A DNA stretch of 53,390 nt. Source: Candidatus Lloydbacteria bacterium CG22_combo_CG10-13_8_21_14_all_47_15. GTDB lineage: Bacteria; Patescibacteriota; Minisyncoccia; Phycocordibacterales; 21-14-all-47-15. Shown here piece after piece: positions 29,571-46,420 of the stretch. Both the position numbers and the translations under genes were made by a program. The stretch spans positions 1 to 53,390 of the forward strand of contig PCTL01000021.1 of assembly GCA_002771515.1 (NCBI GenBank), read 5' to 3'. Under the pieces are notes generated by a model that was not told where the DNA came from, made no database searches, and saw only the letters and a list, made by a program, of their open reading frames with translations. Every line of letters starts with the position of its first letter. Within the stretch, counting starts at the first letter, position 1.

Positions 29571-30329
29571 ATGACAGACCTTTTCAACACCTTTCTCTTT
29601 GAGCCGCTTTATAACGCGCTCATTTTTCTTGTGGATGTTATGCCGGGCGGCAGTGTCGGCTTTTCCGTTATTGCGTTAACGCTTCTGGTAAAACTTTTAC
29701 TCTTTCCACTCTCGCATAAATCGGTGCGTACGCAAGCGAAAATGCGTACATTAGACGCGGATATCAAAAGAATTAAAAAAGAGCACGGTAATGATAAGCA
29801 GGAAGAGGCAAAAAAAATCATGGAGCTCTACCAAGCGCACGGAGTAAACCCATTTTCAGGGTGTTTCCTGCTTATCATTCAGCTTCCTATCATCGTAGCG
29901 CTCTACTGGGTTTTTCTGAAGGGTATAGATATCAAACCGGAGCTGATTTATTCTTTCATACCAACGCCGGAACAAGTAAGCACGATGTTTCTCGGATTTA
30001 TTGATATGCACGGCAAAAGCATTATACTTGCCTTTCTCGCCGGCGCGACACAATTTTTCCAAATGAGACTTTCCCTACCACCGATGCCTACCGGCTCCAC
30101 AGACGGCGGCGCGCGGTCATTCAAAGACGAGCTCGTAAAAAGCATGGGCATTCAGATGAGATACATTATGCCTGTGATTGTCGCCGTGATTTCATACACT
30201 ATTTCAGCCGCGGTTGCATTATATTGGACAACGAGTAATCTATGGAGTATCGGGCACGAGCTTGTGGTTAGGCAGAAAGCGCAAAAAATCCTTGCGCACA
30301 ATACTGAAAAAGAGAGTCATTCCGTATAA
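29571..30329 (+). CDS. yidC: Membrane protein insertase YidC (short, Gram-positive/Oxa1-like form)
   Basis: 252 aa. LLVKLLLFPLSHKS, ELYQAHGVNPFSGCFLLIIQLPI and ALYWTTSNLWSI. Confidence 0.9.
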   Translation: MTDLFNTFLFEPLYNALIFLVDVMPGGSVGFSVIALTLLVKLLLFPLSHKSVRTQAKMRTLDADIKRIKKEHGNDKQEEAKKIMELYQAHGVNPFSGCFLLIIQLPIIVALYWVFLKGIDIKPELIYSFIPTPEQVSTMFLGFIDMHGKSIILAFLAGATQFFQMRLSLPPMPTGSTDGGARSFKDELVKSMGIQMRYIMPVIVAVISYTISAAVALYWTTSNLWSIGHELVVRQKAQKILAHNTEKESHSV

Positions 30330-30935: not shown

Positions 30936-32183
30936 TCACAGTCGGAGCGTCCAGAGCGAGCGGTCTTTTTTGTTCATAAATATAATATGCGTGCTCTCTT
31001 CGTCTATCTTCGGATCAATAATATCAATATCCTCCCCAAGCACATTCGGCGACGCGATACGATCAGTAAAGCCGGATTCGCGGTCAATAATCCAGATGTC
31101 ATCGGAAAGCGATACCTGGCCTTGATACCAGTCGTCAGGATAGTCGCCACGCGGCACTGCGGTCGGTACGCCGCAATACACCGCCACCGAGTCCGCCGCC
31201 CACACGCATTTGTCTGGAGGAAATGTTGAGATAGCAAGCCGTTCGCTTTCTCCATCGTCAAAGAAATAAGTTTCAAAACCGCGCGGTGTGCTTTTACTAT
31301 AAAGCACGGTATCTGCATCAGGACTCGTGAGCGCGGTCAGCCCAAGTATACCGTTCAATATATTCCGAAACCCGCCGGTCTGTGTATTTACAAAATACAT
31401 GTGACCATCAACATTTTTTGACGGTTTTGTAGTGAGAGCTATCGTTCCGGTATTCGGCCAAAGTGCGCGCCATTCGCGAAACGGCAACGAAAAAATCTCA
31501 ACCCGCCGGTTTCCATCATAGTCAGTAGCAATCCCGACCGCGGAATTATCAACATTAAATATAGCAAATATCCTGTCGGAATCTTGAGACGAAGCGAGCG
31601 CAAGTGGTACGCCGGTAATAAATGAGCCGTTAAACTCATTTGTGTCTTCGTGTACAGTTCCCGCGAATGTGACAATCCGCCCGCTATCATCGTCTATATA
31701 TAAGAAGATCACCTGACTACCGTCTTTGTTCCAATACATTTCCTGACCCGCGGGAATTGTCGTACCTGTAAGCCGCTTGGTGTTGTCGGTTGAAAGGTCA
31801 ACTTCGTAGATGTGGCCGGTCCGCCGGTCCGCGTAGCGAGCGAGTGGCTCACCGTCGCGAAGAAATACAGTAGCGCCCACAACCGGCCCCTCGGCGATTT
31901 TCCGAAGTGCCGGTAGCTCACGCGCTTCTCCTTCTCCGCCACCGAGACGGATACTGCCACGCCCGTCGCCACCGTCGCCACCGGCACCGCCAAACGGCGT
32001 GCCACCACCACCTGTGTCTTCCGAGTCAGTAGGGAAAAATCCGGAGAAAATACCACGGTCCGCCGGCTCCACGCTCCCACCGCCAAGCGTACCTCCCCGC
32101 TCTAAATACCACGCCAAGCCCAAAAGCACCACTGCAATGAGCACGCCGACGATTATTAAAATGGTGATTGTTTTTCTTGACAT
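30936..32183 (-). CDS. Hypothetical membrane-anchored protein with a Gly-rich linker and a beta-propeller-like (TolB/PD40-like) body
   Basis: N-terminal TM ITILIIVGVLIAVVLLGLAW. Linker GGGGTPFGGAGGDGGDG. Repeated short beta-strand/turn segments follow. No catalytic motif is recognised. Confidence 0.6.
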   Translation of the reverse strand: MSRKTITILIIVGVLIAVVLLGLAWYLERGGTLGGGSVEPADRGIFSGFFPTDSEDTGGGGTPFGGAGGDGGDGRGSIRLGGGEGEARELPALRKIAEGPVVGATVFLRDGEPLARYADRRTGHIYEVDLSTDNTKRLTGTTIPAGQEMYWNKDGSQVIFLYIDDDSGRIVTFAGTVHEDTNEFNGSFITGVPLALASSQDSDRIFAIFNVDNSAVGIATDYDGNRRVEIFSLPFREWRALWPNTGTIALTTKPSKNVDGHMYFVNTQTGGFRNILNGILGLTALTSPDADTVLYSKSTPRGFETYFFDDGESERLAISTFPPDKCVWAADSVAVYCGVPTAVPRGDYPDDWYQGQVSLSDDIWIIDRESGFTDRIASPNVLGEDIDIIDPKIDEESTHIIFMNKKDRSLWTLRL

Positions 32184-32341: not shown

Positions 32342-33235
32342 TCACTGGGTACCGGGGGGTATTTGTTGTACTTGTTGCTGATTATTCTGCGATTGTAATG
32401 TCTGCGCTGCTGCCTGCGCATCCTGAAGATCCAGAACTCTCTGTTTCAACCCCTGTACCGCAATAAGCTCCTCTTCTTTAAGTTTACGGCCCGCCTCGGT
32501 AAGGTTAGGATTGCTTAACTGGGCTTGAATAGCCTGTTCAGATTTTTCCAACTGCTTAATACATTCGTTACTTGCAAAGCTACCGGTACCGCTATGACCG
32601 CATGCGTTATTAATCAATGGCGATTGTGTGCCACAAGTAGATGACGAGCACTCAATAGGCGCTGAATTAACTTTACTGGCTTGCTCGGCTTGCTGAAATG
32701 CCTGTATTTGAGAACTCACCTCTTGTATCTGCTGCGCTGACGATTTCGTTGGCAATTTTGCATTAATATTCACAGCATTCGGGACGATTTTTAGATCAAC
32801 AAGATTTGGATTGATTGTTCGCAAAATAAGCCATGCGGCAAGCGCAATCAAAAGCCCGCCGATAGCATGCGTCATGCGTTTTCGCCCCGCTTCTTTCATA
32901 GTCACAGAAGGAGAAATATACTCAATACCACCCACCACAAGCATCAAAACGGCAAGCACGCCCGCCAACCCGATAATCGCTGTAAATATGCGTATCACAT
33001 ATGCGCCAAGTCCTCCAGGCGCAACCTGTGTAAGCTCCCCGCCACCGCCGACACCGGACGGTATAGGCGCAAGGAGCTGATATGGTTGTGCCGCAAATAC
33101 TTGGCTGGCGGGAGTAAACAAAAAAATACCGACTACAAATCCTATAAAAGATAGTAACAACGCCATACGAAATAGGTTTTTTGTCCGTATCCCTATGTTT
33201 GATTTTATAAACCGCATAATATACTCATTGTACAT
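32342..33235 (-). CDS. T4SS pilin-like protein (VirB2/TrbC-like) with a long C-terminal extension
   Basis: The signal peptide ends SQVFA/AQ. Then YQLLAPIP and two hydrophobic helices (IFTAIIGLAGVLAVLMLVVGGIEYI and AIGGLLIALAAWLILRTINPNL). A Cys- and Gln-rich tail of about 150 aa follows. Confidence 0.7.
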   Translation of the reverse strand: MYNEYIMRFIKSNIGIRTKNLFRMALLLSFIGFVVGIFLFTPASQVFAAQPYQLLAPIPSGVGGGGELTQVAPGGLGAYVIRIFTAIIGLAGVLAVLMLVVGGIEYISPSVTMKEAGRKRMTHAIGGLLIALAAWLILRTINPNLVDLKIVPNAVNINAKLPTKSSAQQIQEVSSQIQAFQQAEQASKVNSAPIECSSSTCGTQSPLINNACGHSGTGSFASNECIKQLEKSEQAIQAQLSNPNLTEAGRKLKEEELIAVQGLKQRVLDLQDAQAAAQTLQSQNNQQQVQQIPPGTQ

Positions 33236-33244
33236 AATAATTGC

Positions 33245-34303
33245 CTAGAAGCCGAAGAAGTTCCCGAAAAACCCCTCAAATGTCCCGAATTGTATGAGTA
33301 GATTCGCGCTTGCAAACTGGAGAAACCGTTCCGTCGCGTTTACATCAAGCGTCACGCGCGATGCTCCGCCTTCCACATCTTCCGGCTTACGGAATGTTAC
33401 CTCGCGCCAGCCAAGCGTGCCACCACCATCCACCTCAATTGCGTTGCCGTTTAATGCCCAGCGTGTTTCTACCGGCTCGCTGTGTGAGAAAAAATACGGC
33501 TCGGCGCGAATTGCCGATTCTTCCCCGCGAATAGTAACTGAGCCGGTAAGCGCGGTATCGTATACCACACCTTCAAGGGGTCGATTTTCATAAAGCACAA
33601 TTTCCGGCTGTATCGCGGAAATGCTCGCCGCCGCGTGCGCCGTGACGAGACCATCAACCGTGGACACATCTACCGTTACATACCGATGCTCGTATACTTT
33701 CGCGCCTTGGAACTCAAGCGTATTGCGCCCATATCCGGATCGATCTTCAATTACGCGAAAATCAACCTTCCATAGATACACAAGCTCTCGTGCCGGTACC
33801 AGCCGTCCACTTGTTTCATCAATAATACGCGGAAAAGCCATAATTCTGGTATCTGCTTGGGACGCAGGGAGCGCTTTGCCTCGGTAAAAAGGGGGTGTGT
33901 ATGTGTCTGCTTCCCATACAAGTGTCACTTCAGCAGGCCGAAATGTTTTCTCAACTTCAAATGTCCCAAATTTCTTATGTTCCACGACCACTGTAACGCG
34001 CAGAGCAGAACCGGCGCTCCCAACAGTAAGCACTGTTTCTTTCGCGCCTATACCGGACCGTATTTGTTCGCCATTTACATACCATGTAATGGTACTCTCA
34101 TCAACAGAAAATCGCGAACTCGCCACCTTTATAGTAACCCGTTCGTTCGGAACAGGATTTTCGGGAGACGCTGAAACAGAAATTGGATTCGCGTTTGTTA
34201 CAACATTTTCCACTGAAATCTGCGCCGACACAAAAAGAGGCACCACAACAAGCATCCAGAGGATTCCAATAGTGTTTTTTCTAAAGCAACGCGGGAGGTC
34301 CAT
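33245..34303 (-). CDS. Hypothetical secreted protein with an all-beta repeat body
   Basis: Signal peptide ILWMLVVVPLFVSAQ. The C-terminal aromatic tail is FGTFEGFFGNFFGF. It lies inside the T4SS-like operon. Confidence 0.6.
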   Translation of the reverse strand: MDLPRCFRKNTIGILWMLVVVPLFVSAQISVENVVTNANPISVSASPENPVPNERVTIKVASSRFSVDESTITWYVNGEQIRSGIGAKETVLTVGSAGSALRVTVVVEHKKFGTFEVEKTFRPAEVTLVWEADTYTPPFYRGKALPASQADTRIMAFPRIIDETSGRLVPARELVYLWKVDFRVIEDRSGYGRNTLEFQGAKVYEHRYVTVDVSTVDGLVTAHAAASISAIQPEIVLYENRPLEGVVYDTALTGSVTIRGEESAIRAEPYFFSHSEPVETRWALNGNAIEVDGGGTLGWREVTFRKPEDVEGGASRVTLDVNATERFLQFASANLLIQFGTFEGFFGNFFGF

Positions 34304-34323
34304 ATGATTATTCTAACATATAT

Positions 34324-34791
34324 TTACCTCATAATATGAAGCGCGGGGTCAAACGCGGCTGAAAACTTCTGCACCTGCCCGCTGTTTTCCAGATACCGAA
34401 TAACAAAAAGCGACAAGACAGTCATCGGCATGATGCTTAAAAAAGGTAGGAACTCTATCAAAAACATTGTCGCGAGCATGCCAACTTTTTTGGAAGTAAA
34501 CGACACACCGACATACCAAAGATAGAAAAAAATGATAAACGACATTATGGGGCCTACAAGAAAAGAAATCCAAGCAAATACCACACTCACTGCTGCAAGT
34601 ATATCAAACATATCTTTGCCAGCGGCAAAAAGAACAATAATAAGAAAGCCGGCACCATGCATTTTTTTCGGCGGCTTTTCTGTGCGAGCTTTCCCATCTT
34701 CCTTATTCTGCCTATAATCATCGCGGATACGCCGCCGTCGCGCCTGCCGGTCAGCGGTGTCGGTATTCGTTTGTATTTCATCTCCTACCAT
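34324..34791 (-). CDS. Hypothetical small polytopic membrane protein
   Basis: The N-terminus is basic, and three to four TM segments follow. It lies immediately downstream of virB4. Confidence 0.6.
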   Translation of the reverse strand: MVGDEIQTNTDTADRQARRRRIRDDYRQNKEDGKARTEKPPKKMHGAGFLIIVLFAAGKDMFDILAAVSVVFAWISFLVGPIMSFIIFFYLWYVGVSFTSKKVGMLATMFLIEFLPFLSIMPMTVLSLFVIRYLENSGQVQKFSAAFDPALHIMR

Positions 34792-34811
34792 ATTTCATTT
34801 ACGCGCGTTTG

Positions 34812-36704
34812 TTATTTCGCCTCCGCACGGCTCTGTCCCGCTTCTGTCCTGCCTTGGGAGAGCGTTTTCTCTTCATTCTGCGTTGCAGACAGATTGCGCG
34901 CTTCTTTTGCTTTTTTAATAGCGAGCAATTGCGCAGGGTCAGAAGTAATAATCTGGTCTTCGGTATACGAAGCAATTATTTTTATCGCCACATGCTTCAA
35001 CCCAGCGAAAAAAATACCTTCACCAACATCAGCTTCAAGAATGAGAAATTTTTCTTCATCTGTGAGGTGAAAGGTCTCCTGCACCTGGTCTATCACCGCG
35101 GGAGATTGCTTCAAAAGGAGCTGGATTGATGAGTTTGTGATAATAGGCAAACCATACGGAGATTTCAAAAAGTCTCCCACATCCTGCGTAACAGTCGCAA
35201 GCCCGAGAAAATATTTACGCGAACGCTTGGCGATACCAAATAGAAACGAAGCCGTGTCTTCTTCCTTCATCATCCACCACGCCTCGTCTATTACAAGAAG
35301 GCGCTTTCGTAATTCTTTCCGCACGGCACTCCATATGTAATGTGTAATCAGATACATTGCTACCGGCTTCAATTCATCTTCCATGTCTCGCACGGAAAAA
35401 ACGATAAACTTCCGGTTAATGTCAACATTGGTTGGCTGGTTGATAAATCCGGCCCATGTGCCTTTTGTATACTTTACAAGCCGCTGGACGAGCGACTCGC
35501 CACCTTCCATGCCGGCGAGCACAAGCTCAAAATCAGAAAGGAGCGGCGGGGTTTTATCAGTAAATGCCTGACCGAGGACAATGTCTTTTAAGGCATATGT
35601 TTCAGTGATTGCCTGATCAATGATGGAATCTTCTTCGGGCGAAAGCCCGCCAAGCATAATACGAAACAATCCGACGAGATTTACAATATGCGAGCGCAAA
35701 ACATCAGATGGCGACTCATCTTCCCGTGGCGTCGGGAGCTCAAACGGATTGATATGATGCTCGGAACTCAAAGAAATGTTGAAATACCTGCCTCCAACGG
35801 CTTCAGCCATATATTCATATTCCCGTTCCGGGTCCACCACGATAACATCGGTGTCAAACATAAGCGAGCGAAGAATTTCAAGCTTCGTGGTGTAGGATTT
35901 GCCGGCACCGGCTTTCGCAAAAATGACCGAATTGTAATTTTCAAGCGAGTATCGGTCAAAAAGAATAAGCGATGAGTTGTGTCGGTTGACGCCGTAGAGA
36001 ATTCCTTTATCGGATGTCAGGTCAAATGAAATGAACGGAAACAAACTTGAGAGAGGCGCGGAGTTCAATTTTGAGTTGATGCCTAAACGGTCATCCGCAA
36101 GCGGGAGCACGCTCTGAAACCCCGCTTCCTGCTGGAAAAGCGCGGGCTTCAGATACACAAGCAATGATTCAAGAATCGCTTTTATCTTGGACTCAACCTT
36201 GTCTAGCTCGTCTTTTGAGTCACCGTAAATCGTGATGTAAAGACCGACATTAAAGAGCTTTTCCTGAGCCTGCTGAAGCCGGTCACGCAGATCTTCCAGG
36301 TTTCGGTACGCGGCATCAAGCGCGGGATCACGAACAAGTCCTTTTTCCTCACGGATATTTATCTGACTCTCCACCTCCGCTACTTTTTTCTGAAATTGCC
36401 GCAATACCCGTTCGGTCTCAATCATGTGCACATAGATAGCGACATCAAACACATGGTCTAAGTTTACAATGGGCGAAAACCAGTTTTCCGACAAATTTCG
36501 CGGATATGAGATTACAAAAAATGTCCGTGCAATTTTCTCACCAAGATTTATCTCGCGTGGCGTAATCTGAAGCGCGGAAGGTGCTAAAATGTCTCTCAAC
36601 TCAAGCGCTGACGCTTCGTATATTTCCTGCGGCAAAATCGGCGCAATTGCATCATCGCCGGTCTGTTTGGTCTGTTTATTTTTAAAAATATCAAGCAATC
36701 CCAT
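34812..36704 (-). CDS. virB4: VirB4/TrbE/PrgJ-family T4SS ATPase
   Basis: 630 aa. Walker A FAKAGAGKSYTTK. Walker B RLLVIDEAWWMM. The C-terminal LATVTQDV motif is typical of VirB4-type AAA_10 ATPases. Confidence 0.9.
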   Translation of the reverse strand: MGLLDIFKNKQTKQTGDDAIAPILPQEIYEASALELRDILAPSALQITPREINLGEKIARTFFVISYPRNLSENWFSPIVNLDHVFDVAIYVHMIETERVLRQFQKKVAEVESQINIREEKGLVRDPALDAAYRNLEDLRDRLQQAQEKLFNVGLYITIYGDSKDELDKVESKIKAILESLLVYLKPALFQQEAGFQSVLPLADDRLGINSKLNSAPLSSLFPFISFDLTSDKGILYGVNRHNSSLILFDRYSLENYNSVIFAKAGAGKSYTTKLEILRSLMFDTDVIVVDPEREYEYMAEAVGGRYFNISLSSEHHINPFELPTPREDESPSDVLRSHIVNLVGLFRIMLGGLSPEEDSIIDQAITETYALKDIVLGQAFTDKTPPLLSDFELVLAGMEGGESLVQRLVKYTKGTWAGFINQPTNVDINRKFIVFSVRDMEDELKPVAMYLITHYIWSAVRKELRKRLLVIDEAWWMMKEEDTASFLFGIAKRSRKYFLGLATVTQDVGDFLKSPYGLPIITNSSIQLLLKQSPAVIDQVQETFHLTDEEKFLILEADVGEGIFFAGLKHVAIKIIASYTEDQIITSDPAQLLAIKKAKEARNLSATQNEEKTLSQGRTEAGQSRAEAK

Positions 36705-36718
36705 ATGGTATCTGTTGT

Positions 36719-37354
36719 TTAAGTTGCCGTGATTGGCTTTTCCAGCTCACCAGGATTAAATATCTGGTAAAAGAGTTCAATAATCTCCTCTGTACCGAGT
36801 GGCACGACCCGTACGCCGGAACGAATAAGCCCCTGCTCCACAACGCCGGCACGCTGTTCAAGCTGGGTACGCGATTCTTCAAAAATGTCCGCGGCAGCCA
36901 TCTGAGGTGTTTTTGATTTCTTTCCCGCGCCAGGGAACAATTTTTGAAACCCTGCCTGCTTCACTGCAACAGAACGCTCATACGGAATCACGATAAAAAA
37001 ACTCTTTGTCATTATATCAACCGACTCGGTAAAATTTTTGATAAACGCCACATATTCCCGTGTCTGGATTTTAATCAAGTCATTCACCTGCTCCTTTTGG
37101 CGTCCTTCCAAAAGCGCGATATACGGACGGATATCAAGCCGTCGCGATTGAATATAAAATTCAACCGAAAAATCAAGCGAGTTTAAAAAATTCTGAAACT
37201 GTAGAATAATCGCCTGTTGTTCATCCGTAGATTTAAGCGCGAAATTCAGAGATGATGCCATAAGCACCATGCGAAGCGAGCCGTTTTTCAGCACAACTAC
37301 GCCGTCACGGACTTCCTTCACCGGAACAAATTGTTGAGTTGTTTTATCCGCCAT
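36719..37354 (-). CDS. Hypothetical soluble protein of the T4SS-like operon (211 aa)
   Basis: The start is taken at ATG 37352-37354 (MADKTTQQFVPVKEVRDGVVVLKNG). It overlaps the PrgI-like gene by 11 nt. Confidence 0.6.
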   Translation of the reverse strand: MADKTTQQFVPVKEVRDGVVVLKNGSLRMVLMASSLNFALKSTDEQQAIILQFQNFLNSLDFSVEFYIQSRRLDIRPYIALLEGRQKEQVNDLIKIQTREYVAFIKNFTESVDIMTKSFFIVIPYERSVAVKQAGFQKLFPGAGKKSKTPQMAAADIFEESRTQLEQRAGVVEQGLIRSGVRVVPLGTEEIIELFYQIFNPGELEKPITAT

Positions 37355-37838
37355 ATATATTCTTATGATAATCCTTTCCAAAGGATTTGTCCGATTTAAG
37401 TACTTTTCCCTCTTTCGCCTTTGCTCTTTGGTCCATCTCCGAATATATGCTCGCTTGCACATCAAGCCCCCAAGACAGGTCGTGAAGCTTGCTTTCAGAC
37501 AGCTTCGGCACATACGACGCGGCAACTTGTTCCTCGCGCGCTTTTGCGTTCAATTTTGGTTCTTCTTTCTTCCACACATACAACTTTGGCTGCAAAAAGT
37601 AACGAAACATATTTTCAAGCATGGAAATAAACGGCCTGTCGTTTACTTTGTAAAACGCGAGGGCGGTTGCGAACCCACCAATCAGCACAACCAATAAAAC
37701 CGCCACGATGCGAGGCACAAGCACCCATGCAACATACGACAACCCGATACCGCCTCCCAAATACAAAAACTGCTTAAATGTAAGCGGGCCGAAAATCTTG
37801 TCTTCAATTTCTATAAATTGCGGTACTTCGTATGGCAT
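37344..37838 (-). CDS. PrgI-family (VirB3-like) membrane protein
   Basis: MPYEVPQFIEIEDKIFGPLTFKQFLYLGGG followed by two TM helices is the typical PrgI-family N-terminus. It is positioned upstream of virB4. Confidence 0.7.
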   Translation of the reverse strand: MPYEVPQFIEIEDKIFGPLTFKQFLYLGGGIGLSYVAWVLVPRIVAVLLVVLIGGFATALAFYKVNDRPFISMLENMFRYFLQPKLYVWKKEEPKLNAKAREEQVAASYVPKLSESKLHDLSWGLDVQASIYSEMDQRAKAKEGKVLKSDKSFGKDYHKNIYGG

Positions 37839-37852
37839 GCATGATTTACTTG

Positions 37853-38512
37853 TTACTCAATCGGTTCGCGATACGGGTCCTGATTGGATATATACCCCGT
37901 TTGTTTACCTTTATCATCATCGCGCGCTTCTTCGTTTGTTTCCTGCGCAGGCATAGTGTCTCCGTTTGCGGTGCTGTCGCCAAATCCATAAGTACTCTCC
38001 TCTTTCGGTAATGTACGCGTACTGCCAAGCTTTTTGGAGATGATTGGTACTTCTGCGGATTTCTGCTGAATTTTTATTCTACTCTGTTCTTCCGCTATCT
38101 GTACTTTCTCCGCGGGCGCAATTGGAAGATTGTTTGGTGCTTTCGCGGTTCCTGCCGGCGATACAGTGGCTTTCCGCGCCTCATCTTCCGCAATAGAATG
38201 AACACGCTTCAGCGATTCGCGGATTTTTCGGAAAACCTGCTCATTCACCTCTTGCGCGACCTGCCGTACCGTTTGCTTGTCTACGGATTCAAACCGCTCA
38301 TACAGGTCCCGTATAAAATCGCCGGGCTTCAATATTCCGAGCATCACAAAATCAGTCGCCTCCATCAGTTCGCCGATCTGGTCAACATGCAATGCATGGT
38401 CCTGTCCGATACGCCGTACAATATTCTCGGTATCGGTGGCAAGAATCGCTTCCCGCACTTCTTGCGGAAGCGCGTTAAATTTTTTCTCAAGTTGTTCTTT
38501 TGTGTACTCCAT
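37853..38512 (-). CDS. Hypothetical protein (219 aa, no TM segment)
   Basis: It is tightly packed in the operon, 6 nt after the upstream gene. The N-terminal half is helical and the C-terminal half is low-complexity. Confidence 0.55.
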   Translation of the reverse strand: MEYTKEQLEKKFNALPQEVREAILATDTENIVRRIGQDHALHVDQIGELMEATDFVMLGILKPGDFIRDLYERFESVDKQTVRQVAQEVNEQVFRKIRESLKRVHSIAEDEARKATVSPAGTAKAPNNLPIAPAEKVQIAEEQSRIKIQQKSAEVPIISKKLGSTRTLPKEESTYGFGDSTANGDTMPAQETNEEARDDDKGKQTGYISNQDPYREPIE

Positions 38513-38517
38513 ATATA

Positions 38518-40275
38518 CTACGCGGTTTTATTGTCCTTGGTATCTGTTTTCTTTTGTGTTTTAACTTCCTGCCAATTTTGTGTCTGCCCAATGTTCTTAC
38601 TCCTGCGTTCAATTTCCTTATCTATCCGGTCCAATTCGTGGTCAAGCCGACTCAATTCCTTGTTCATTGCGTTCTGTTCCTCCGGTCGTATATCCTTGGT
38701 TTCCGCGACCAATTGCCGTATTTCATTGACATTTTTATTGACCCCCTCCCGTTCTGTTTTAAGCCGGCCAACCCTTTCTTGGTCACTTCTAAGTTTTTCT
38801 CGGTACTCTGTTAATGCCTCGCCGGCTTTACCTGCCGCGATGCCACCGGTAGCCGCAAGTGTTGTTTGATATGTTTGAAGCCTCTGCGCGCCACCGGCAC
38901 CCGCGGAAATTCGTTTGCCGAGAGCTATCTGGCTGTCTGTCTTTGTTTGAACAGATTGCTGATAGCCCTGCGCAGTCTTATCAAGTCCACGATACATCAA
39001 ACTGCCGATGCGCGGTGACTTTGTCGCAAGTCCTTGCATAATAGTGGAACCTGCCGCGGCAGACGCGGCGCGTCCGCCTGTAGCATGCCATACCCTGCCC
39101 ACTCCGCCCGCAACTTTTCCTTGCCCCCACCTCCGTGCTGATTGTCCCCACGCAATAGTGGTAGACGCGCCAGCCGCGCCAACCATCTTTGCGACTACCA
39201 ATATCCCTATCGCAAGCCCGATAAGGACCGCAAAGTTCAGAATGAGTGCGGACTGCTGTGTCCAGTTGGTCAAAGTATCGGCCCATGATTCTGTTTTTGC
39301 TTTGGCTAGAAGAGCGTTATTGTCGACATTTTGTATCATCGTTGCGTACGCGGCAAAAAGTATCATGTAGAACGGAGCGAAAAAGGCCTGTGAAAAAAGA
39401 GCGTGCCACCACTGATGTGCATATTTTTGTGTTTGTGGCAATATCATCGCGAGAAACCCGAGCGGTGCGAGTACCATCAATATCATAAGTACCACCGACC
39501 GAATGACAAACAAAATAGCCGCCGCTAGAAGCACAAACGCGACCACAAGCAAGAGAACGGACCCGAGAGAAGTAATTAAAATAATACTTGAAAGAGAGGC
39601 CTCAACATTGGATCCGAGCGTTGATGGATTGGTTACATCCCATACGCTTTCAATGCGGAGCCCTTCCACAAAGATGGCTCCAATATTTTTCGGCGTACCA
39701 GCCGCTGTGCCGGTAACGGTTATGGAATTGTAGAACTCAAGCGCAACAACATTTGACACATCAACGATTGCTCGCGTGATAACAAGACTAAAATTTACCA
39801 GAAGCGCGACAACGATGATGTTTGTGAGAAGTTTTTTGGTGTTAAATCCTTCAACCTGAAGAATGGTGGCAATGGCGATATAAAGAAGAATAAAGATAAA
39901 AAATAGATTCACGACATCGCGCAGTGTCCGCCATCCCACCCCCACGAAATCATTATTGTTCAGAAACCTATTATGAATAGCATTGTCCACCGCCCAGTTG
40001 AAAAGAATCCCAGCGCCGGTCACCGCCAAGCCAAATGTGCCCATGATTGTATTACCGACATCAGCTAAGGCATTGTCAATAAGCGTGCCAAGTTTATCTA
40101 TGCCTAAAAATTCGGCGAGAATACCGTTCCCAATTCCTCCTGTCCCACCCTCCGATTTATTGTTTTGAGCAAAAGAAACTTCAAACGGAGCGAGCAAAGC
40201 CACACACAAAACAACACACAGGAGAAGCCCCGCGACAGATTTCTTGTTTCTATGTGAAAAGAAGAAATAAGCCAT
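38518..40275 (-). CDS. VirB6/TrbL-like polytopic membrane protein with a C-terminal coiled-coil tail
   Basis: 585 aa with a signal or anchor and at least six TM helices. A Gly/Ala-rich cytoplasmic region and a charged coiled coil follow. This size and topology class usually accompanies VirB4 and VirB3. Confidence 0.6.
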   Translation of the reverse strand: MAYFFFSHRNKKSVAGLLLCVVLCVALLAPFEVSFAQNNKSEGGTGGIGNGILAEFLGIDKLGTLIDNALADVGNTIMGTFGLAVTGAGILFNWAVDNAIHNRFLNNNDFVGVGWRTLRDVVNLFFIFILLYIAIATILQVEGFNTKKLLTNIIVVALLVNFSLVITRAIVDVSNVVALEFYNSITVTGTAAGTPKNIGAIFVEGLRIESVWDVTNPSTLGSNVEASLSSIILITSLGSVLLLVVAFVLLAAAILFVIRSVVLMILMVLAPLGFLAMILPQTQKYAHQWWHALFSQAFFAPFYMILFAAYATMIQNVDNNALLAKAKTESWADTLTNWTQQSALILNFAVLIGLAIGILVVAKMVGAAGASTTIAWGQSARRWGQGKVAGGVGRVWHATGGRAASAAAGSTIMQGLATKSPRIGSLMYRGLDKTAQGYQQSVQTKTDSQIALGKRISAGAGGAQRLQTYQTTLAATGGIAAGKAGEALTEYREKLRSDQERVGRLKTEREGVNKNVNEIRQLVAETKDIRPEEQNAMNKELSRLDHELDRIDKEIERRSKNIGQTQNWQEVKTQKKTDTKDNKTA

Positions 40276-40318
40276 TCAAAATAGTTATCCATCCTGTATA
40301 CTGGCCTCTCAAGACCAC

Positions 40319-41272
40319 CTATCCGCCAAATGCTCGGAGACCGCCCTGAAAAATCCCAATAACGAGCTGTGTCAAAAGCGCGCCAATAATCTCATTTACT
40401 TCGTCGGCAATCGCAAGACGGCCTTTGGGCAAGTCAAGCGCCTGATTCAGCTGTTCTTCAATCGTAGCTCCGGGCAAGGTGATATTGCCACGATACGCGG
40501 TACACTGACCGGCGGTAAAGCTCGTACATATAAGTTTATCCGCGGTGGAGAAAAAGCCGTTGCTCCACTGCAATTTTGCCGCCTCACTCGTTAGAGCTGT
40601 TGACTGTCGTTTGTTCCGTTCGTCAAGCGCTGAAAGATACGCGCCGTATGGACTGCTCTGCCTGTTAACCGAAATATCCACAAGCCCTTCCCAGCCAAGG
40701 TTTTTAAAATCCTTGAACGCGAGTTCCGTGTTAGCAACAATGCCGGAGAGCGTACAGCGCGAGCGGATGAGATACGGGTCCGGAATCGTAAGCGATATAC
40801 GAAACCACGGCGCCCATCTTAAATTACAAAGCTCCGCCACGCCTAATGTTTCAATGAAAATACCGGTAGCCTGATCCGCGACCTCGGCGAAAAAGGATGA
40901 CGGGCTTTCCACGAATGCGGGCGACCCTTGAAAGCCGGTGTTAATCCAGCGTACAATATCCGAAACCATGAATTGAATGACGATGTTTAAGAGCACCCAC
41001 ATCAGGGTATCCTCTATACACTCTTTTGAAGTCAGTGTCAGTTGCGTAGAGCGGACAACAACATCTGATACCGGCACCTCTTGGAAGAGCCCGAAACCGC
41101 CAACCGCACTGCTAATAGCTGACAAACCGGCTAGGCCTGCTACCGCGCCGGCGGCTGAAGCGATACAGCCGCCAACCGCGTGCGCGCGTGGCACGCCTAT
41201 AAAAAATAACTGTGGCGCGATAATGAGCGCGATGAGAAATGTGGCAATAAGTTTTTTTGAATTGTCTCTCAT
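40319..41272 (-). CDS. Hypothetical secreted or membrane protein with conserved Cys residues
   Basis: Signal peptide ATFLIALIIAPQLFFIGVPRAHA. Several Cys residues are present, along with a C-terminal hydrophobic helix. Confidence 0.55.
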   Translation of the reverse strand: MRDNSKKLIATFLIALIIAPQLFFIGVPRAHAVGGCIASAAGAVAGLAGLSAISSAVGGFGLFQEVPVSDVVVRSTQLTLTSKECIEDTLMWVLLNIVIQFMVSDIVRWINTGFQGSPAFVESPSSFFAEVADQATGIFIETLGVAELCNLRWAPWFRISLTIPDPYLIRSRCTLSGIVANTELAFKDFKNLGWEGLVDISVNRQSSPYGAYLSALDERNKRQSTALTSEAAKLQWSNGFFSTADKLICTSFTAGQCTAYRGNITLPGATIEEQLNQALDLPKGRLAIADEVNEIIGALLTQLVIGIFQGGLRAFGG

Positions 41273-41281
41273 ACAATATGA

Positions 41282-42271
41282 TTATTGAGTTGTATAAATG
41301 CCTGTCGCCTCATCAAATACGACCCCATACGCCGGCAGGAGCGCATCAATCTCCTGAATTGCTGTGCCAAGTATTGCGCGCGCGTTTCCATAGAGCTGTA
41401 ATCCTGCAATTGTCTGTATCGGGTCAATAAAAGAATTTTGAAAATAACCGGCGGTATTTGAAAAAGTCATGAGCGCGTTCAACAATTCAATATGCTTTTC
41501 AAGAAACACCTGTGGCACAGAAAGTCCGGCAAGTGACTCCGCGGCAGTTTTATATTCCTCCTCAAGAATCGCAAATTTTTGCAGTTCGGACTTGCGTTCT
41601 GTCTGAAGTATATCTGTAAGCAATACCAATTCAGTTCCTGCGGAAGGCACTGATAAGAGCGCGGATAAGCGCGCAAACAGCGCATTCGCATAGACAAGCA
41701 CAGCCGTCTGCGTATTTGATGTCGGTGTAATGTCGGAGAGTGTATATGCCGGCGCGCCTTTCCCAAAAGCAAATACATCGTCGGCGACGGATGCAACGAG
41801 TTTTTTACCTGTCTCTTCAGAAAATTCTCCCGATTGACGGAGCACGAGATATGAAGAAAAAAGCTCCCGCGCGACTGACTCCGATATAGTGCTCGGTTGA
41901 TCCGTCGTGTCTCCGCCCGTCACGCCATACACTGTCGGAACGATCTTTGTCAGATCGTCGTCGGGACCAGCAACTAAAGGATGTCTGCCAGCGTTCAATT
42001 CGTCACCGTCTGTCGTGCCGTCGCCATCGGTGTCAGGATTATTGGGGTTTGTTTGCCAAAGCGTTTCCTCCCAATCGTAGAGCCCATCACCGTCTGTATC
42101 CAACTTCGCTATTTGCTGCGCGGAATACGCGTCAAGACCAGCATTTCTTTTTTCAAATGTCAGCGTTCCGATCTCCCCTCCATACCGCTCACCAACGAAT
42201 GCCGCAAAAGCGGCAACCCCGATGAGGATGAGGATAGCAACCACCGCTTTTTTGTTTTCCCGCGTGAGCAT
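41282..42271 (-). CDS. Hypothetical anchored protein with thrombospondin-type-3-like Ca-binding repeats
   Basis: N-terminal TM. DTDGDGLYDWEE...NPNNPDTDGDGTTDGDE are DxDxDG repeats. It is the first gene of the T4SS-like operon. Confidence 0.6.
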   Translation of the reverse strand: MLTRENKKAVVAILILIGVAAFAAFVGERYGGEIGTLTFEKRNAGLDAYSAQQIAKLDTDGDGLYDWEETLWQTNPNNPDTDGDGTTDGDELNAGRHPLVAGPDDDLTKIVPTVYGVTGGDTTDQPSTISESVARELFSSYLVLRQSGEFSEETGKKLVASVADDVFAFGKGAPAYTLSDITPTSNTQTAVLVYANALFARLSALLSVPSAGTELVLLTDILQTERKSELQKFAILEEEYKTAAESLAGLSVPQVFLEKHIELLNALMTFSNTAGYFQNSFIDPIQTIAGLQLYGNARAILGTAIQEIDALLPAYGVVFDEATGIYTTQ

Positions 42272-42373: not shown

Positions 42374-43834
42374 TCATTGGTTATTTTTTATACTCGGAAC
42401 ACGAACCACGGCATATAGCACACCGCGCTCACCGAGTCCGGATTCAACCATTGTCTGACCGAACGGATTGATGATACTTGAAATTCCGCCTTTTACTGAA
42501 CGCAGGAGATATTTTCCGTTTTCAACAGCGCGTAACTTTGCAATACTATGGTTTTGTTTTGCGGCAAGTGGAGCATTAAAAACACTGTCATTGCTGATAT
42601 TCACGATAAATATACTGTCGCTTAAACTTGCAAGCCGTGGAAAAATCACCTCGGAGCAAATGAGCGGCGTGATAGGGCGCCCGCCAACGCTAACTTCTTG
42701 GGCGCCGACTCCTTTTCCCAATGGCTCTATGTGTGTTTCTTTTCCGGATTCAGAACTTTCTTCCGCAAGCGGCAGGAGTACCTGTTTGTTGTAAACGCCT
42801 TCCACAAGTCCGTCTTCCATCACAACCAAAGAATTGTAGCGCGTACCGTCGTCGTCCGTATGCATACCAATCACTAAAGAAACATCCGGATGTTCTTGTG
42901 ACAGCAGAGCGAGCCCGTCAAACCATTCTTTGATTACATAATCGGGATTATCGTACTGAAGCGGAAGTCGCGTATCGTGCCGAATAACGAAAAAAGGAAA
43001 CGCATTTTCCGGAACTACAATAACATCAGGATTGCCAGTCAACGCCTCGTCTATAAGCTCAAGATAGGCGGTATAGCCATTAATTCCGACACTCTCCTCC
43101 GTCTTTAAGTTTTGATTAATAACCGCCACCCGTAATTCAGTTTGCCGGTCTAACACACCAGCATGGACCACAACATATCCGTACAGCGATACACAGAATA
43201 TCACAGCGACAATCACGAATGCGGCGGCTATCCTTCTGCGTTTGTCTGTAAAAATGAAATAGAAAAGCATATTGGCAAACACCACAAGAAACCCAAGCCC
43301 ATAGATGCCGGCAAACTTCGCCACTTGTAGTATGTATACTTCGTTGTGGAGCGCGTAGCCAAGATGTCCCCATGTAAATCCAAGTACAAAAAATTCGCGG
43401 GCCCATTCCATCAAAGCCCACAGTATCGGAAAAATAAATACATCGCGCATCCTGCTGGTACTGAACTGTTTATACGCAGTAAAGAATAGCGCGAAAAAGA
43501 GACCGCCGCCAAATGCGGCGAGAAGAACCAAGAATACTTTGAGAAGCGAGTCTTTGTGAACCCAGAAAAAACTGTTCGTATCAATCCACCACCACGCGTT
43601 CAGAGACGCAAGCGGATAAAGTACGGCAATACCATATAGCGTCCCTGCAAACAGAGCTCCTACAAACACTTTTTTGCGCGTCGTACTCGACAGATTTACA
43701 AACAAAAAGAGCGGGACAAGTGCAATCCATACAAAAAAACCGGCGCTCATATACGGAAGCGAGAGCCAGAGAAGAAGCACGGATAGTACCGGCGCAAAAA
43801 AAATTGATTTTAAAAATTGATGTATGATATTCAT
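42374..43834 (-). CDS. lnt: Apolipoprotein N-acyltransferase
   Basis: An N-terminal polytopic region is followed by a CN-hydrolase domain. Candidate catalytic triad: Glu in VVPENAF, Lys in YNKQVLLPLAE, Cys in PLICSEVIFP. The start is preferred at ATG 43834. Confidence 0.8.
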   Translation of the reverse strand: MNIIHQFLKSIFFAPVLSVLLLWLSLPYMSAGFFVWIALVPLFLFVNLSSTTRKKVFVGALFAGTLYGIAVLYPLASLNAWWWIDTNSFFWVHKDSLLKVFLVLLAAFGGGLFFALFFTAYKQFSTSRMRDVFIFPILWALMEWAREFFVLGFTWGHLGYALHNEVYILQVAKFAGIYGLGFLVVFANMLFYFIFTDKRRRIAAAFVIVAVIFCVSLYGYVVVHAGVLDRQTELRVAVINQNLKTEESVGINGYTAYLELIDEALTGNPDVIVVPENAFPFFVIRHDTRLPLQYDNPDYVIKEWFDGLALLSQEHPDVSLVIGMHTDDDGTRYNSLVVMEDGLVEGVYNKQVLLPLAEESSESGKETHIEPLGKGVGAQEVSVGGRPITPLICSEVIFPRLASLSDSIFIVNISNDSVFNAPLAAKQNHSIAKLRAVENGKYLLRSVKGGISSIINPFGQTMVESGLGERGVLYAVVRVPSIKNNQ

Positions 43835-43927
43835 GACGATTGTGCCGCTCCGATATACACTCGTATAATACATTGTATATTTTTTGTGGTATACTGGAAG
43901 AAATATTATTTTGCTTAAGAAAGTTTT

Positions 43928-45175
43928 ATGAAACAAAGCAAGTTATTGCTCCCATTCCTCTATATGATGCTCGTCGGTTTATGGGGCGGGATTTCCATTT
44001 CCAACACACACGCGCAAACAGTAGAAGAATTGCAAGCGCAAATTCAATCACTCCTACAAACAATCTCATCTTTGCAGGCACAAATAAATATCATCGCGGA
44101 AAACAGCACGCCAAGCGGCGTATCTTTTGTATTCACAAGAGATCTCTCTATCGGCGACACAGGTGAAGATGTGCGGGCACTTCAAAAAATATTGAACCAG
44201 AAGTTGAGCCAGAGAACAAAAACGAGAGTCGCCGTAAGCGGTCCCGGATCACCCGGCAATGAGACTGATTTTTTTGGCACGCTAACGCAGAGCGCGGTCA
44301 TCCGCTTTCAAAACCTGTATGCGCAAGAAATACTTGCACCTGTTGGCATTAGTACCGGCACCGGTTTTGTCGGAGCTTCAACAAGAGCAAAGTTAAATAC
44401 ACTCGCAATACCAGCCGACACAAGCGAAACATCGGAAAACCCTGCGACCCCGCCAAAACTGCCTGTAGCGGAAGTCATACCGGCTATACCTGAACCGATT
44501 GCAGAAGTCATACCGGATGTCACAGAAATAATCCCGACGATACCTAAACCGGCTGCAGAAAGTATTACTGTATCGGCGGAATCATATCCGGATGTCAACA
44601 TTGGTGAAGTTGCAGTTAATTTTATCGCACCGACATTCGGCCCGCCAAATACGATAATCACTATTTTCGGAGAAGGATTTACACGGAAAAGCAATGTACT
44701 TCACATTGGAGACCGATATTTCATCAGAAACATATTATCTTCAAGCAGTACTGAACTTACATTTAATATGCCCAATGCCGTGCCTGCCGGTAAATATGCT
44801 TTATCCATAAGTAATGAATACGGCACAAGTAGCGCATATAAAACTTTTTTGGTTACAGACAAAGCTGTACAATCGCCAGTCATATCGGATGTCTCGCCAG
44901 CATCCGGACCATACGGTACGGAGGTGACTGTCATAGGCGATAATTTTTCATTGAAAGGTAACGATATTTACACAAGTTACGGTATCATAGAAAATATAGC
45001 GTCATCTGACGGAAAAACACTTTCATTTAAGATACTGCCGGCACCCGAGGTGCCCGAGCTACAGGTTGGCGTTGATTTAAACAAAGGAATAGAGTGGCCG
45101 ATTTGGTTTTATATAGTGAGCGAAGGTGGCGAAAGCGACGAAAGTAATCCCGGCTCGTTCATATTGCGCATATGA
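43928..45175 (+). CDS. Secreted protein with a peptidoglycan-binding domain (PG_binding_1-like) and IPT/TIG-like domains
   Basis: A signal peptide is present. GDTGEDVRALQKILNQ...FGTLTQSAVIRFQ is PG-binding-like. Two Ig-like modules follow (PTFGPPNTIITIFGEGF and VSPASGPYGTEVTVIGDNF). Confidence 0.7.
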   Translation: MKQSKLLLPFLYMMLVGLWGGISISNTHAQTVEELQAQIQSLLQTISSLQAQINIIAENSTPSGVSFVFTRDLSIGDTGEDVRALQKILNQKLSQRTKTRVAVSGPGSPGNETDFFGTLTQSAVIRFQNLYAQEILAPVGISTGTGFVGASTRAKLNTLAIPADTSETSENPATPPKLPVAEVIPAIPEPIAEVIPDVTEIIPTIPKPAAESITVSAESYPDVNIGEVAVNFIAPTFGPPNTIITIFGEGFTRKSNVLHIGDRYFIRNILSSSSTELTFNMPNAVPAGKYALSISNEYGTSSAYKTFLVTDKAVQSPVISDVSPASGPYGTEVTVIGDNFSLKGNDIYTSYGIIENIASSDGKTLSFKILPAPEVPELQVGVDLNKGIEWPIWFYIVSEGGESDESNPGSFILRI

Positions 45176-45594
45176 AAATTGATTTTAACATCAACTCCAT
45201 ACGACAAAAGATTCCGGCGCTTATTTTAACGATACTAATCCTAGGCGTTTTTGCGTTTATTGGTGACACAACGCCTCCCCGTACCATATCTGCAACGCCA
45301 GCCCACGCCGCCGCTCCAATCAGCCCATTCCTTCCATTCGGAGGTTTCGTGTTTAATGTTATCTACTGCACCTGCTCCGCCAATGCAGTATTACAGGTCG
45401 GTCCGCCTAGAGGAGGATTCTTCATATTCCAACCTGGATTTACAAGGGTCTATAGGTGGTTCCAGATTCCGCGTGCTGGTGTATGGGTGCTTGGAAATTA
45501 TATCCCCAGCGGCACATGTCTTATCTTTGCAGGCAAATCCTGCGTACCATTTCCCGCACAAGGAACTATTACCATCGTCGGTACCTCACTATAG
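45172..45594 (+). CDS. Hypothetical small secreted four-Cys protein
   Basis: ATGA overlap with the upstream gene. N-terminal TM or signal peptide. The mature part has CTC...C...C spacing and ends GTITIVGTS. Confidence 0.55.
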   Translation: MKIDFNINSIRQKIPALILTILILGVFAFIGDTTPPRTISATPAHAAAPISPFLPFGGFVFNVIYCTCSANAVLQVGPPRGGFFIFQPGFTRVYRWFQIPRAGVWVLGNYIPSGTCLIFAGKSCVPFPAQGTITIVGTSL

Positions 45595-46374
45595 CCGTTG
45601 ATACAGACATTTCCATGATGCAAGCGCAAGTTCTTCCGCCCTTGTTTTTTCATGTATTCCGCATACCGCAAACGCTTCCGCTATACTGTCTTTATCCGCA
45701 ACCATTTCAAGATTTCTTATGAAAAATTTTCGCTTATGCGCGAAACCTGCTCGCACAAGCGCAAAAAACTTTTCTTCATTTTTCACGACTCCGTAAAAAA
45801 ACTCCTTTGATATGTCGCTGATATGTAAAATTGCCGAATCAATTTTTGGCGGTGGAGAGAATTCGCGCGCTTTCACCGTCTGTATATACCGTGGAATACC
45901 GTATGCTTTGACACTCATTGAAAGAATGCTCTCCTTGCCATCGCGCGCCACAATCCGCTCGGCGACTTCTTTCTGTACAAGGAGCGTCATACTCTCCGGT
46001 TGGTTTTCAGACGATAAAAATTTTCGCAAGAACTCGCCGGTGATGTAGTACGGTATATTCGCAACGATTTTGTATTGAGAGTTTGGGAGCCCGAACTTTG
46101 CATGTTCCCCAAGAATATCGCCGGCGGAAAGCACCAAACGCCCTTCTGCAATTTCCGACGCGAACTTTTCTTTGAGAAACTCCGCGAGTGTTTCGTCCTT
46201 TTCAACTGCAATCACTTTCGCGCCGGCAGAGAGAAGTACCTCGGTCAAAACACCTTTCCCAGGACCCGCTTCAAGCACCGTATCGCCAGGCACAATACCT
46301 GCCTCCCGAACCATTGTACGGACCACGCCACGCGACTTCAAAAAATGCTGTCCGAGCGACTTCTTTGCTTTCAT
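45589..46374 (-). CDS. rsmA: 16S rRNA (adenine1518/1519-N6)-dimethyltransferase
   Basis: MKAKKSLGQHFL, the SAM motif VLEAGPGKGVLT and NIPYYIT. The start is at ATG 46374, not the track's 46578. Confidence 0.9.
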   Translation of the reverse strand: MKAKKSLGQHFLKSRGVVRTMVREAGIVPGDTVLEAGPGKGVLTEVLLSAGAKVIAVEKDETLAEFLKEKFASEIAEGRLVLSAGDILGEHAKFGLPNSQYKIVANIPYYITGEFLRKFLSSENQPESMTLLVQKEVAERIVARDGKESILSMSVKAYGIPRYIQTVKAREFSPPPKIDSAILHISDISKEFFYGVVKNEEKFFALVRAGFAHKRKFFIRNLEMVADKDSIAEAFAVCGIHEKTRAEELALASWKCLYQRL

Positions 46375-46420
46375 GTGGCACATGATACAATACAAACCAT
46401 TAAAATGGTAATTTTGTATT

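Follow-up and report, generated by a model that had tools for sequence, protein, structure and literature searches.

A conserved, probably non-conjugative type IV secretion locus in the ksgA-yidC interval of a Lloydbacteria contig

The Patescibacteria account for much of the diversity among bacteria, and by what means they obtain resources from their hosts is still debated. Their type IV secretion system (T4SS) is the leading candidate machine for taking host resources, and it is essential in the sole species tested. The described Patescibacteria set consists of VirB4, TrsD, PrgI, VirB6 and a VirB2-like pilin, has no relaxase and lies near ksgA (Quiñonero-Coronel 2025, PMC12102498). In S. epibionticum, Tn-seq shows that epibiotic growth depends on the T4SS genes, which are essential, and that comEC is dispensable (Wang 2023, PMC10633639; PMC12857230), and a cultured Microgenomatia strain, which takes up host RNA, forms tubular parasite-host connections that are maybe T4SS pili (bioRxiv 10.64898/2026.06.21.733656). 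Reviews still call the role of the Patescibacteria T4SS 'completely unknown'. Here I analyse a T4SS locus on contig PCTL01000021.1 of Candidatus Lloydbacteria bacterium CG22_combo_CG10-13_8_21_14_all_47_15; the window is the whole stretch of 53,390 nucleotides (53 kb), and the remainder of this metagenome-assembled genome lies outside the analysis. An earlier note, made from the sequence alone, had stated that comparable gene sets occur in Patescibacteria, and they are indeed described in PMC10633639, PMC12102498 and a 2025 T4SS review (PMC12857230). The same note had called the locus a poorly described system, which overstated its novelty, as the kind was published between 2023 and 2025. The bacterium is an ultrasmall member of the Paceibacteria (Parcubacteria), and the locus is almost certainly a chromosomal, vertically inherited T4SS of the Patescibacteria clade, related to the monoderm MPF-FATA machines. 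Its overall explanation is very probably a conserved, non-conjugative gene cluster that serves host interaction, with a pilus-like structure as its rather likely product.

ORF analysis of the window shows ten co-directional open reading frames (ORFs) on the minus strand, from 42271 down to 32342, which I number g1 to g10 in this order. They are 329, 317, 585, 219, 164, 211, 630, 155, 352 and 297 amino acids (aa) long and follow each other at distances of 9, 43, 5, 14, -11 (an overlap), 14, 20, 20 and 9 nt; the ten packed, co-directional frames that had been listed before are thus all present at their coordinates, with gaps of 5-43 nt or an overlap. Public gene calls on near-identical contigs (at most one mismatch over 10-20 kb) give the same products, with 297/274 aa for the last gene. 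The GC content of the block, 0.45-0.49, shows no compositional anomaly against the rest of the window (0.41-0.52). Scans for promoters and terminators gave counts within about 1.7 standard deviations of shuffled sequences and provide no basis for inferences on operon structure. For comparison with relatives, one genome per species was scanned, yielding 80 loci from Paceibacterota and from Zambryski-, Taylor-, Nomura- and Campbellbacteria, of which the 38 with full 10-kb flanks were used for synteny. The order in these is ksgA, (TIG-domain gene), g1, g2, VirB6, g4, PrgI, TrsD, VirB4, (g8), g9, pilin, g11, (jag), yidC; g11 (30936-32183) is an eleventh gene that belongs to the conserved block in 38 of 38 related loci. 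The block order is kept on the same strands in all 38 species-level loci, with the ksgA and yidC flanks in 35-38 of them, and the gaps of a few nucleotides are conserved as well. Conservation of the ten-gene order had been proposed as a check, and it holds in these 38 Paceibacteria species-level relatives. The tblastn searches missed g1, g4 and g8 in some loci; a combination of motif and position brought back g4 and g1, and g8 was placed by its position alone. With same-order orthologues in 38 other species for most of them, g1 to g10 are real genes and not chance ORFs.

The motor of the machine is encoded by g7 (34812..36704, minus strand), a VirB4 ATPase of 630 aa. It matches the NCBIfam model NF045971 (conju_CD1110) at E 8e-104 with 348 bits (cut-off 325) and the Pfam model PF19044 (P-loop_TraG) at E 1e-25, and in the PDB it matches the VirB4 C-terminal domain 4ag5 at E 1.7e-41 and TrwK of R388 at E 3e-10. 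The motifs on which the VirB4 assignment was first made, Walker A GAGKSY and Walker B LLVIDEAW, are both intact, and with NF045971 above its cut-off this assignment is confirmed. The usual N-terminal domain of VirB4 is missing from g7, as the NF045971 match begins only at model position 182. Directly upstream of g7, g6 (36719..37354, minus strand; 211 aa), whose ATG lies at 37354 within the 11-nt overlap with g5, encodes a soluble protein with neither transmembrane (TM) segment nor signal peptide. It matches positions 102-234 of NF045975 (E 1.9e-8), positions 2-107 of NF045971 (E 5e-5) and the TrsD/TraD model NF041427 (E 2.9e-4), all three scores being far below the full-length cut-offs; its public annotation is PF26593, TraC-like. 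It is found in 38 of 38 loci, with a median identity of 62% and a mean column identity of 64%. I regard g6 as a TrsD-like homologue of the VirB4 N-terminal domain, and since it covers the very region that g7 lacks, the N-domain is supplied by a separate, highly conserved polypeptide and VirB4 is split.

Two membrane proteins accompany this motor. The 164-aa product of g5 (37344..37838, minus strand) is PrgI/VirB3-like, as the earlier note had it: it matches PF12666 (PrgI) at E 4e-11 with 43.7 bits, above the cut-off of 27, and is present in 38 of 38 loci at a median identity of 50%. The VirB6/TrbL-like assignment of g3 (38518..40275, minus strand; 585 aa) stands less firmly. The polytopic topology agrees with it, with at least five hydrophobic segments followed by a hydrophilic coiled-coil C-terminal tail of about 200 aa, and 7 of 30 orthologues match TrbL (best E 8e-6), but the window protein itself reaches only 19.5 bits (E 9e-4) against PF04610 (TrbL), below the cut-off of 25.9. 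The gene is kept in 38 of 38 loci, its topology fits the 'extended VirB6' type of PMC12857230, and a PDB search with the orthologue profile gave low-complexity artefacts only. It probably encodes a VirB6 channel protein of the extended type.

The proteins of the block differ widely in conservation. Median identities are 76% for VirB4, 62% for TrsD and 50% for PrgI, i.e. for motor and anchor, compared with 54% for UvrD (47675-49615), 50% for KsgA (45589-46578) and 45% for YidC (29571-30329) among the neighbouring housekeeping proteins. The exported or anchored proteins reach 36% (pilin), 31% (VirB6 and g11), 30% (g2 and g9) and 26% (g1), and the cytoplasmic g4 29%. The 76% of VirB4 against 45-54% in housekeeping genes points to unusually strong purifying selection on the secretion ATPase. 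More than 8000 homologues of this VirB4 were found; the 120 matches listed are all 75-100% identical, and those listed with a source name come from Parcubacteria/Patescibacteria. Its grouping with Patescibacteria, nearest to MPF-FATA, rests on these best matches and the CD1110 profile, not on a tree.

The last gene of the ten, g10 (32342..33235, minus strand), is the sole pilin gene in the window. It encodes a VirB2-type pilin of 297 aa (274 aa from an internal ATG), and its match to PF18895 (T4SS_pilin), 34.3 bits at a cut-off of 26.6, upholds the earlier description as VirB2-like; all 26 of 26 orthologues match PF18895 as well. A signal peptide is followed by the two-helix VirB2-type module (residues ~50-148) and by a Gln-rich C-terminal extension of 149 aa with four Cys. 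Such an extension, of at least 40 aa, is present in 55 of 59 orthologues (species), and its type varies. In 7-8 relatives the tail is Hedgehog-like, with the pattern TE.WPP...H...G.CVD...YEVK...HFH; its profile matches the Sonic hedgehog N-domain in many PDB entries (E 0.0016-0.002), the match spans the TE.W, zinc-site (H..G..VD) and YE.K motifs, and the tail ends in H.H as Hedgehog does. The genes in question are L005:3739-4641, L060:6589-7608, L015:12879-13712 and L051:13210-14256, and those of loci L049, L029, L047 and L019 are listed with them. The Hedgehog N-domain shares its fold with the bacterial M15A peptidoglycan peptidases (PMC6027127, PMC8052667), which makes this tail a candidate pilin-borne peptidoglycan peptidase in those relatives. 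A second type, found in 14 species, carries an H..G...D plus HWH signature and gave no significant match. A PDB search with the type-A tail profile returned nothing meaningful, and only one of nine type-A tails matched Peptidase_M15_4 (E 9e-4). Joining tail types A and B into one family is unsupported (hhalign probability 0.9%, E 0.063). The tail of the window pilin is neither Hedgehog/DD-peptidase-like nor of the HWH type.

The remaining genes of the block encode accessory proteins. The earlier note counted six unrecognisable ORFs with signal peptides, TM segments or low-complexity regions; this description fails for g6, which is TrsD-like and has no TM segment or signal peptide, and for g1, which matches a TSP3 model above cut-off. 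The 329-aa product of g1 (41282..42271, minus strand) has an N-terminal membrane anchor, two TSP3-type calcium-binding repeats (residues ~55-95; PF18884, TSP3_bac, 29.6 bits, cut-off 25) and a C-terminal domain of about 200 aa without assigned fold. Its orthologue profile hits the PDB in calcium-binding repeat regions only (Bap 7c7u at E 6e-6, and lanmodulin). By tblastn it has orthologues in 23 of 38 loci; a TM-anchored ORF lies directly upstream of g2 in 46 of 47 loci, and 22 of those carry a D.D.DG motif. Downstream of it, g2 (40319..41272, minus strand; 317 aa) encodes a signal or anchor segment and, according to the orthologue alignment, a conserved Cys-containing core of about 230 aa (WINxGFxGxPxFV...) with invariant W, G, P, D and C columns, present in 38 of 38 loci. 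Of the 6036 cluster representatives collected with the core profile, 2998 have E<=1e-30, and the core defines a large family that has no Pfam model. The window has a short version limited to the core; orthologues have a median length of about 535 aa, and most relatives add variable C-terminal domains, which match Bact_surface_Ig-like, SdrD_B, PKD, F5_F8_type_C (discoidin) and Flg_new_2 (InlB-repeat), examples being L029:4988-6391 and L006:3508-5268. These variable adhesin-type domains suggest species-specific surface binding. A lead towards DUF4141 (the TraI slot of Bacteroides conjugative transposons) is a hint only: 4 of 28 g2 orthologues match, and in the one inspected the match had 14.5 bits against a cut-off of 30 and covered a short N-terminal stretch outside the core.

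Between VirB6 and PrgI lies g4 (37853..38512, minus strand), whose 219-aa product is cytoplasmic by hydropathy, having no hydrophobic segment. It consists of a helical N-domain of about 105 aa, a variable disordered linker and the C-terminal motif DPYREP[IL]. All 25 aligned orthologues share D211, P212, Y213 and E215 of this motif, and 54 of 54 loci have, between VirB6 and TrsD, an ORF on the same strand whose product terminates in DPY[RK]E. Pfam and PDB profile searches gave no match for g4, and its layout is the architecture to be expected of a tethered docking peptide. The 155-aa product of g8 (34324..34791, minus strand) is a small membrane protein which, by hydropathy, has a basic N-terminus and three hydrophobic segments. 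Its sequence similarity extends to one of 38 loci only, and its orthology is by position: between VirB4 and g9, about four-fifths of the 60 loci listed have a small ORF with 1-4 hydrophobic segments. The secreted 352-aa product of g9 (33245..34303, minus strand) is confidently modelled as a three-domain rod; AlphaFold2, with 118 sequences, predicts an all-beta protein (pLDDT 89.5, pTM 0.79) of three tandem Ig-like beta-sandwich domains behind a signal peptide. Foldseek against the PDB retrieved only generic Ig arrays (Sidekick, phage Hoc, the SiiE adhesin and the S-layer protein SbsB) and no T4SS part, and the model is not NTF2-like. The gene is present in 38 of 38 loci and has 273 homologues at E<=1e-5 in a profile search; among the 120 matches listed, all with a source name come from Patescibacteria lineages. 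Placed in the block by synteny, g11 (minus strand) encodes a protein of 415 aa with an N-terminal membrane anchor, a Gly-rich linker and a beta-rich ectodomain of about 330 aa. It directly follows the pilin gene in 37 of 38 loci, at a median gap of 3 nt in relatives versus 158 nt here, and the gap in the window holds a promoter-like site (32235-32206). A TolB-like beta-propeller is not established for it, PD40 matching in 2 of 31 orthologues at E 1e-4 and TolB at a non-significant E 1.5. PDB searches with the orthologue profiles of g2, g11, g9, g4 and g6 returned nothing meaningful.

Several neighbours of the block deserve mention. A gene for the apolipoprotein N-acyltransferase Lnt (LNT_N plus CN_hydrolase; 42374-43936, minus strand) lies between the ksgA side and g1. 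It occurs at that position in none of the 38 related loci and is an insertion just upstream of g1. An Lnt is unexpected in a lineage thought to have no outer membrane. On the opposite strand to the operon, between it and ksgA, are a gene for a TIG/IPT-domain protein with a weak peptidoglycan-binding domain (43928-45175, plus strand) and beside it one for a 140-aa protein without assignment (45172-45594, plus strand); this pair position is seen again in 8-9 of 38 relatives. A wall hydrolase with LysM and Peptidase_M23 domains is encoded at a distance of about 9 kb from the operon (51598-52392, plus strand) and has a homologue within 10 kb of virB4 in 6 of 38 relatives; M23 and LysM domains are among the VirB1-like candidates in the 2025 survey (PMC12102498). 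Two adjacent genes at 24994-27565 (plus strand) encode a protein of 373 aa, which has a fervidolysin-like prodomain and weakly matches bactofilin, and a 486-aa S8 subtilase. This pair adjoins the sole tRNA of the window, tRNA-Gly (24710-24781); in the relatives it was not found close to the T4SS. A type IV pilus cluster occupies 9779-15534 (minus strand), with PilB/T2SSE (13789-15534), PilC/T2SSF (12608-13789), two prepilin-like genes (11609-12606) and two unassigned genes (9779-11712), and ComEC (3112-4599, minus strand) and RecJ (5172-6941) are encoded in the window too; the cell therefore carries type IV pilus and competence machinery separate from the T4SS. An origin-proximal placement of the locus was rejected, as rpmH, rnpA and dnaA are not beside yidC and the cumulative GC skew has no inflection in the window.

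The components suggest how such a machine could work, functional statements being drawn from homology and from experiments in another class. In VirB-type systems VirB4, kept at the membrane by VirB3 and VirB6, pulls pilin subunits out of the bilayer and drives their polymerisation. The window holds the corresponding motor set of VirB4, the TrsD-like protein, PrgI/VirB3, a probable VirB6 and one VirB2-type pilin with signal peptide, together with seven lineage-specific partners, namely g8, g4, the exported or anchored g1, g2, g9 and g11, and the TrsD-like g6. VirB4 and TrsD would dock on PrgI and VirB6 at the membrane and, at the expense of ATP, draw pilin out of it and build a filament or tube by polymerisation; that the machine assembles a pilus-like structure is rather likely. 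By VirB2 topology the C-terminus of the pilin is extracytoplasmic, which would place the variable module on the outside of any filament and decorate its exterior. The anchored and secreted proteins might span or open the wall layers and touch the host cell, and g4 may dock on the motor via its C-terminal peptide, as adaptor or as cargo. The whole would then be a conduit or contact organelle for an epibiotic lifestyle rather than for conjugation. As to the direction of transport, export of proteins or effectors is a tentative option, and import of host macromolecules is somewhat doubtful.

As a rival, the locus could be a decayed or minimal conjugative element that has recently lost its relaxase, coupling protein and integrase or has them beyond the window. 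The CD1110 family of VirB4, with its conjugative prototypes, a component set like that of monoderm conjugation machines, and VirD4-like genes that most Patescibacteria genomes carry elsewhere, usually far from virB4 (PMC12102498), are in keeping with such a remnant. However, when about 50 large ORFs from the window were scanned with Pfam, none matched a relaxase, type IV coupling protein (T4CP), VirB11, VirB7/9/10 or integrase family, as the earlier note had claimed from inspection (oriT was not searched for), and relaxase, T4CP and mobile context are all missing within these 53 kb. The large ORFs flanking the block are all housekeeping genes (KsgA, UvrD/PcrA, a ComM fragment, YidC, Jag, Alr, RNase Y, ClpP, trigger factor, NusA, H+-PPase, PGK and TIM), the GC content is unremarkable, and the slot from ksgA to yidC is fixed, with gene order, in 38 species. 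Relaxases, moreover, are rare in Patescibacteria, being present in 103 of 3035 genomes and near virB4 in 15 cases (PMC12102498). For a remnant of an integrative and conjugative element (ICE) one would expect the reverse of what is seen here, where the motor is better conserved than its housekeeping neighbours and its place in the chromosome is fixed. The remnant of an ICE or plasmid, already doubted in the earlier note, is largely refuted by synteny and flanks, and a conjugative origin of this kind is extremely improbable; the same evidence of synteny, lineage and composition agrees with that note's view of a chromosomal, stripped-down T4SS apparatus. The machine is in all likelihood not conjugative.

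Among non-conjugative functions, the machine could take up DNA or other nucleic acids in the manner of H. pylori ComB or archaeal Ced, feeding ComEC or another route and supplying nucleotides that the cell is unable to make, which I consider unlikely. The presence of ComEC, RecJ, the ComM fragment and the type IV pilus cluster in the same window would suit this function, as would the co-localisation of ABY1-class T4SS loci with comF, recG and radA (PMC12102498), a weak VirB4 match to CedB (E 5e-10), its standing as a candidate role in reviews (PMC11665869) and the acquisition of host RNA by the cultured Microgenomatia strain with putative T4SS pili (bioRxiv 10.64898/2026.06.21.733656). Yet the CedB match, at 38.6 bits, falls far short of the cut-off of 700, no component specific to ComB or Ced was detected, and ComEC is 28 kb off and not syntenic with the block. 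In S. epibionticum, deletion of comEC ends competence and not viability, and the T4SS is essential (PMC10633639, PMC12857230); any uptake role would thus be independent of classical competence. A still less probable function is adhesion or contact only, in which a decorated pilus or displayed pilin binds or locally digests the host envelope and nothing is translocated. No coupling protein is present in the window, the outer pilin module is large and variable in 55 of 59 species and Hedgehog/DD-peptidase-like in some relatives, adhesin-type domains occur on g2 in relatives, and g9 is an Ig-domain rod of an adhesin-like kind, all of which would fit an adhesive organelle. Against it speak a VirB6-like channel protein kept in 38 of 38 loci, a cytoplasmic g4 whose docking-type tail suggests recruitment to the motor, and the type IV pili which already give adhesion in these organisms.

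The reading as a pilus-assembling machine for host interaction has its own weak points. The window VirB6 scores below the TrbL cut-off, and Pfam and PDB sequence searches and one usable model revealed neither a VirB8-like nor a VirB1-like component in the operon. VirB2 pilins do not usually carry an extension of 149 aa on each subunit, which could mean that the protein does not polymerise. The fold of g2 is not predictable, as its AlphaFold2 model (16 sequences) had a pLDDT of 47 and was not used and its orthologue profile had no sequence match in the PDB, and the ectodomain of g11, which may be a beta-propeller, has an unproven fold. The absence of a relaxase or T4CP holds for these 53 kb, and a distant one elsewhere in the genome would be possible, all the more with VirD4-like genes in most Patescibacteria genomes. 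Finally, the essentiality data come not from Paceibacteria but from Saccharimonadia, another class. A bolder version, speculative and quite improbable, is a modular host-piercing 'feeding tube' driven by VirB4, TrsD, PrgI and VirB6 in place of a classical secretion channel. The pilin subunits would show swappable modules, of which the Hedgehog/DD-peptidase-like ones could cut peptidoglycan and others, including that of this window, might be coiled-coil or Cys-knot; g2 would likewise show swappable adhesin domains, g9 and g11 would form a wall-spanning stalk, and g4 would plug into the ATPase through its DPYREP tail and gate or couple the import of host macromolecules. If this were true, the eleven genes would define an apparatus whose extracellular half lacks a counterpart in characterised T4SSs.

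The locus leaves the present picture of the Patescibacteria T4SS unchanged and supplies a clean eleven-gene definition of its Paceibacteria version. It also offers experimental handles, namely the invariant C-terminal peptide of g4, the split VirB4, the pilin with its variable surface module and the modelled Ig-rod of g9, which could guide complex prediction, the interpretation of cryo-ET data and genetics once Paceibacteria co-cultures become tractable.

Compared with known systems, the locus shares most with the Patescibacteria-clade T4SS (PMC12102498, PMC10633639): VirB4 groups with that clade and has a TrsD-like neighbour, PrgI/VirB3, a VirB2-like pilin and a VirB6-like protein of consistent topology though sub-threshold score, no relaxase or coupling protein is nearby, and the genes are chromosomal, beside ksgA as in Paceibacteria, with a VirB4 inherited within the class. 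Unlike in the S. epibionticum cluster SEML1_0006-0019 (PMC10633639), for which an array of six pilin genes is reported, there is one pilin gene here; further differences from the described systems are that virB4 is not directly followed by a peptidase or lysozyme gene and that dnaA, rnpA and rpmH are not next to the locus in the window, and, unlike in relatives, Lnt is inserted between the ksgA side and g1. With the monoderm MPF-FATA machines (pCF10 Prg/Pcf, pIP501 Tra, pGO1 Trs, C. difficile CTn2, ICEBs1) the locus has in common the CD1110-family VirB4, a PrgI-type VirB3, a TrsD-like protein as in pGO1, a VirB6-like polytopic protein and no VirB7/9/10 outer-membrane core; it differs from them in being chromosomally fixed and not mobile, in its VirB2-type pilin, which is absent there, and in that relaxase, T4CP, a VirB8-like protein (PrgL/TraM) and a VirB1-like hydrolase were not detected in this operon. 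The diderm VirB/Trw systems (A. tumefaciens VirB, R388 Trw) share the core logic of VirB2, VirB3, VirB4 and VirB6, including the TrwK alignment at E 3e-10, whereas here VirB5 and VirB7-11 were not detected, the pilin has an extension of about 150 aa and VirB4 is made of two polypeptides. The ComB T4SS of H. pylori and the archaeal Ced system likewise use a VirB4-family ATPase without a relaxase, and an import role has been proposed as a candidate for the Patescibacteria system (review PMC11665869); unlike Ced, the match to CedB (NF041017) stays at 38.6 bits and that to CedD at E 0.0045, and no ComB- or Ced-specific partner family was matched in Pfam and NCBIfam scans. In the sections read of PMC12102498 and PMC10633639 I found no description of g1, g2, g4, g8, g9, g11 or the extended pilin, nor of the Paceibacteria synteny of eleven genes, the DPYREP tail, the g9 Ig-rod, the swappable adhesin-type domains of g2 in relatives and the near-universal pilin extension with its Hedgehog/DD-peptidase-like variant in some species. 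The locus adds a member to a published kind, and the eleven-gene synteny and the features that accompany it are offered as leads, not as findings.

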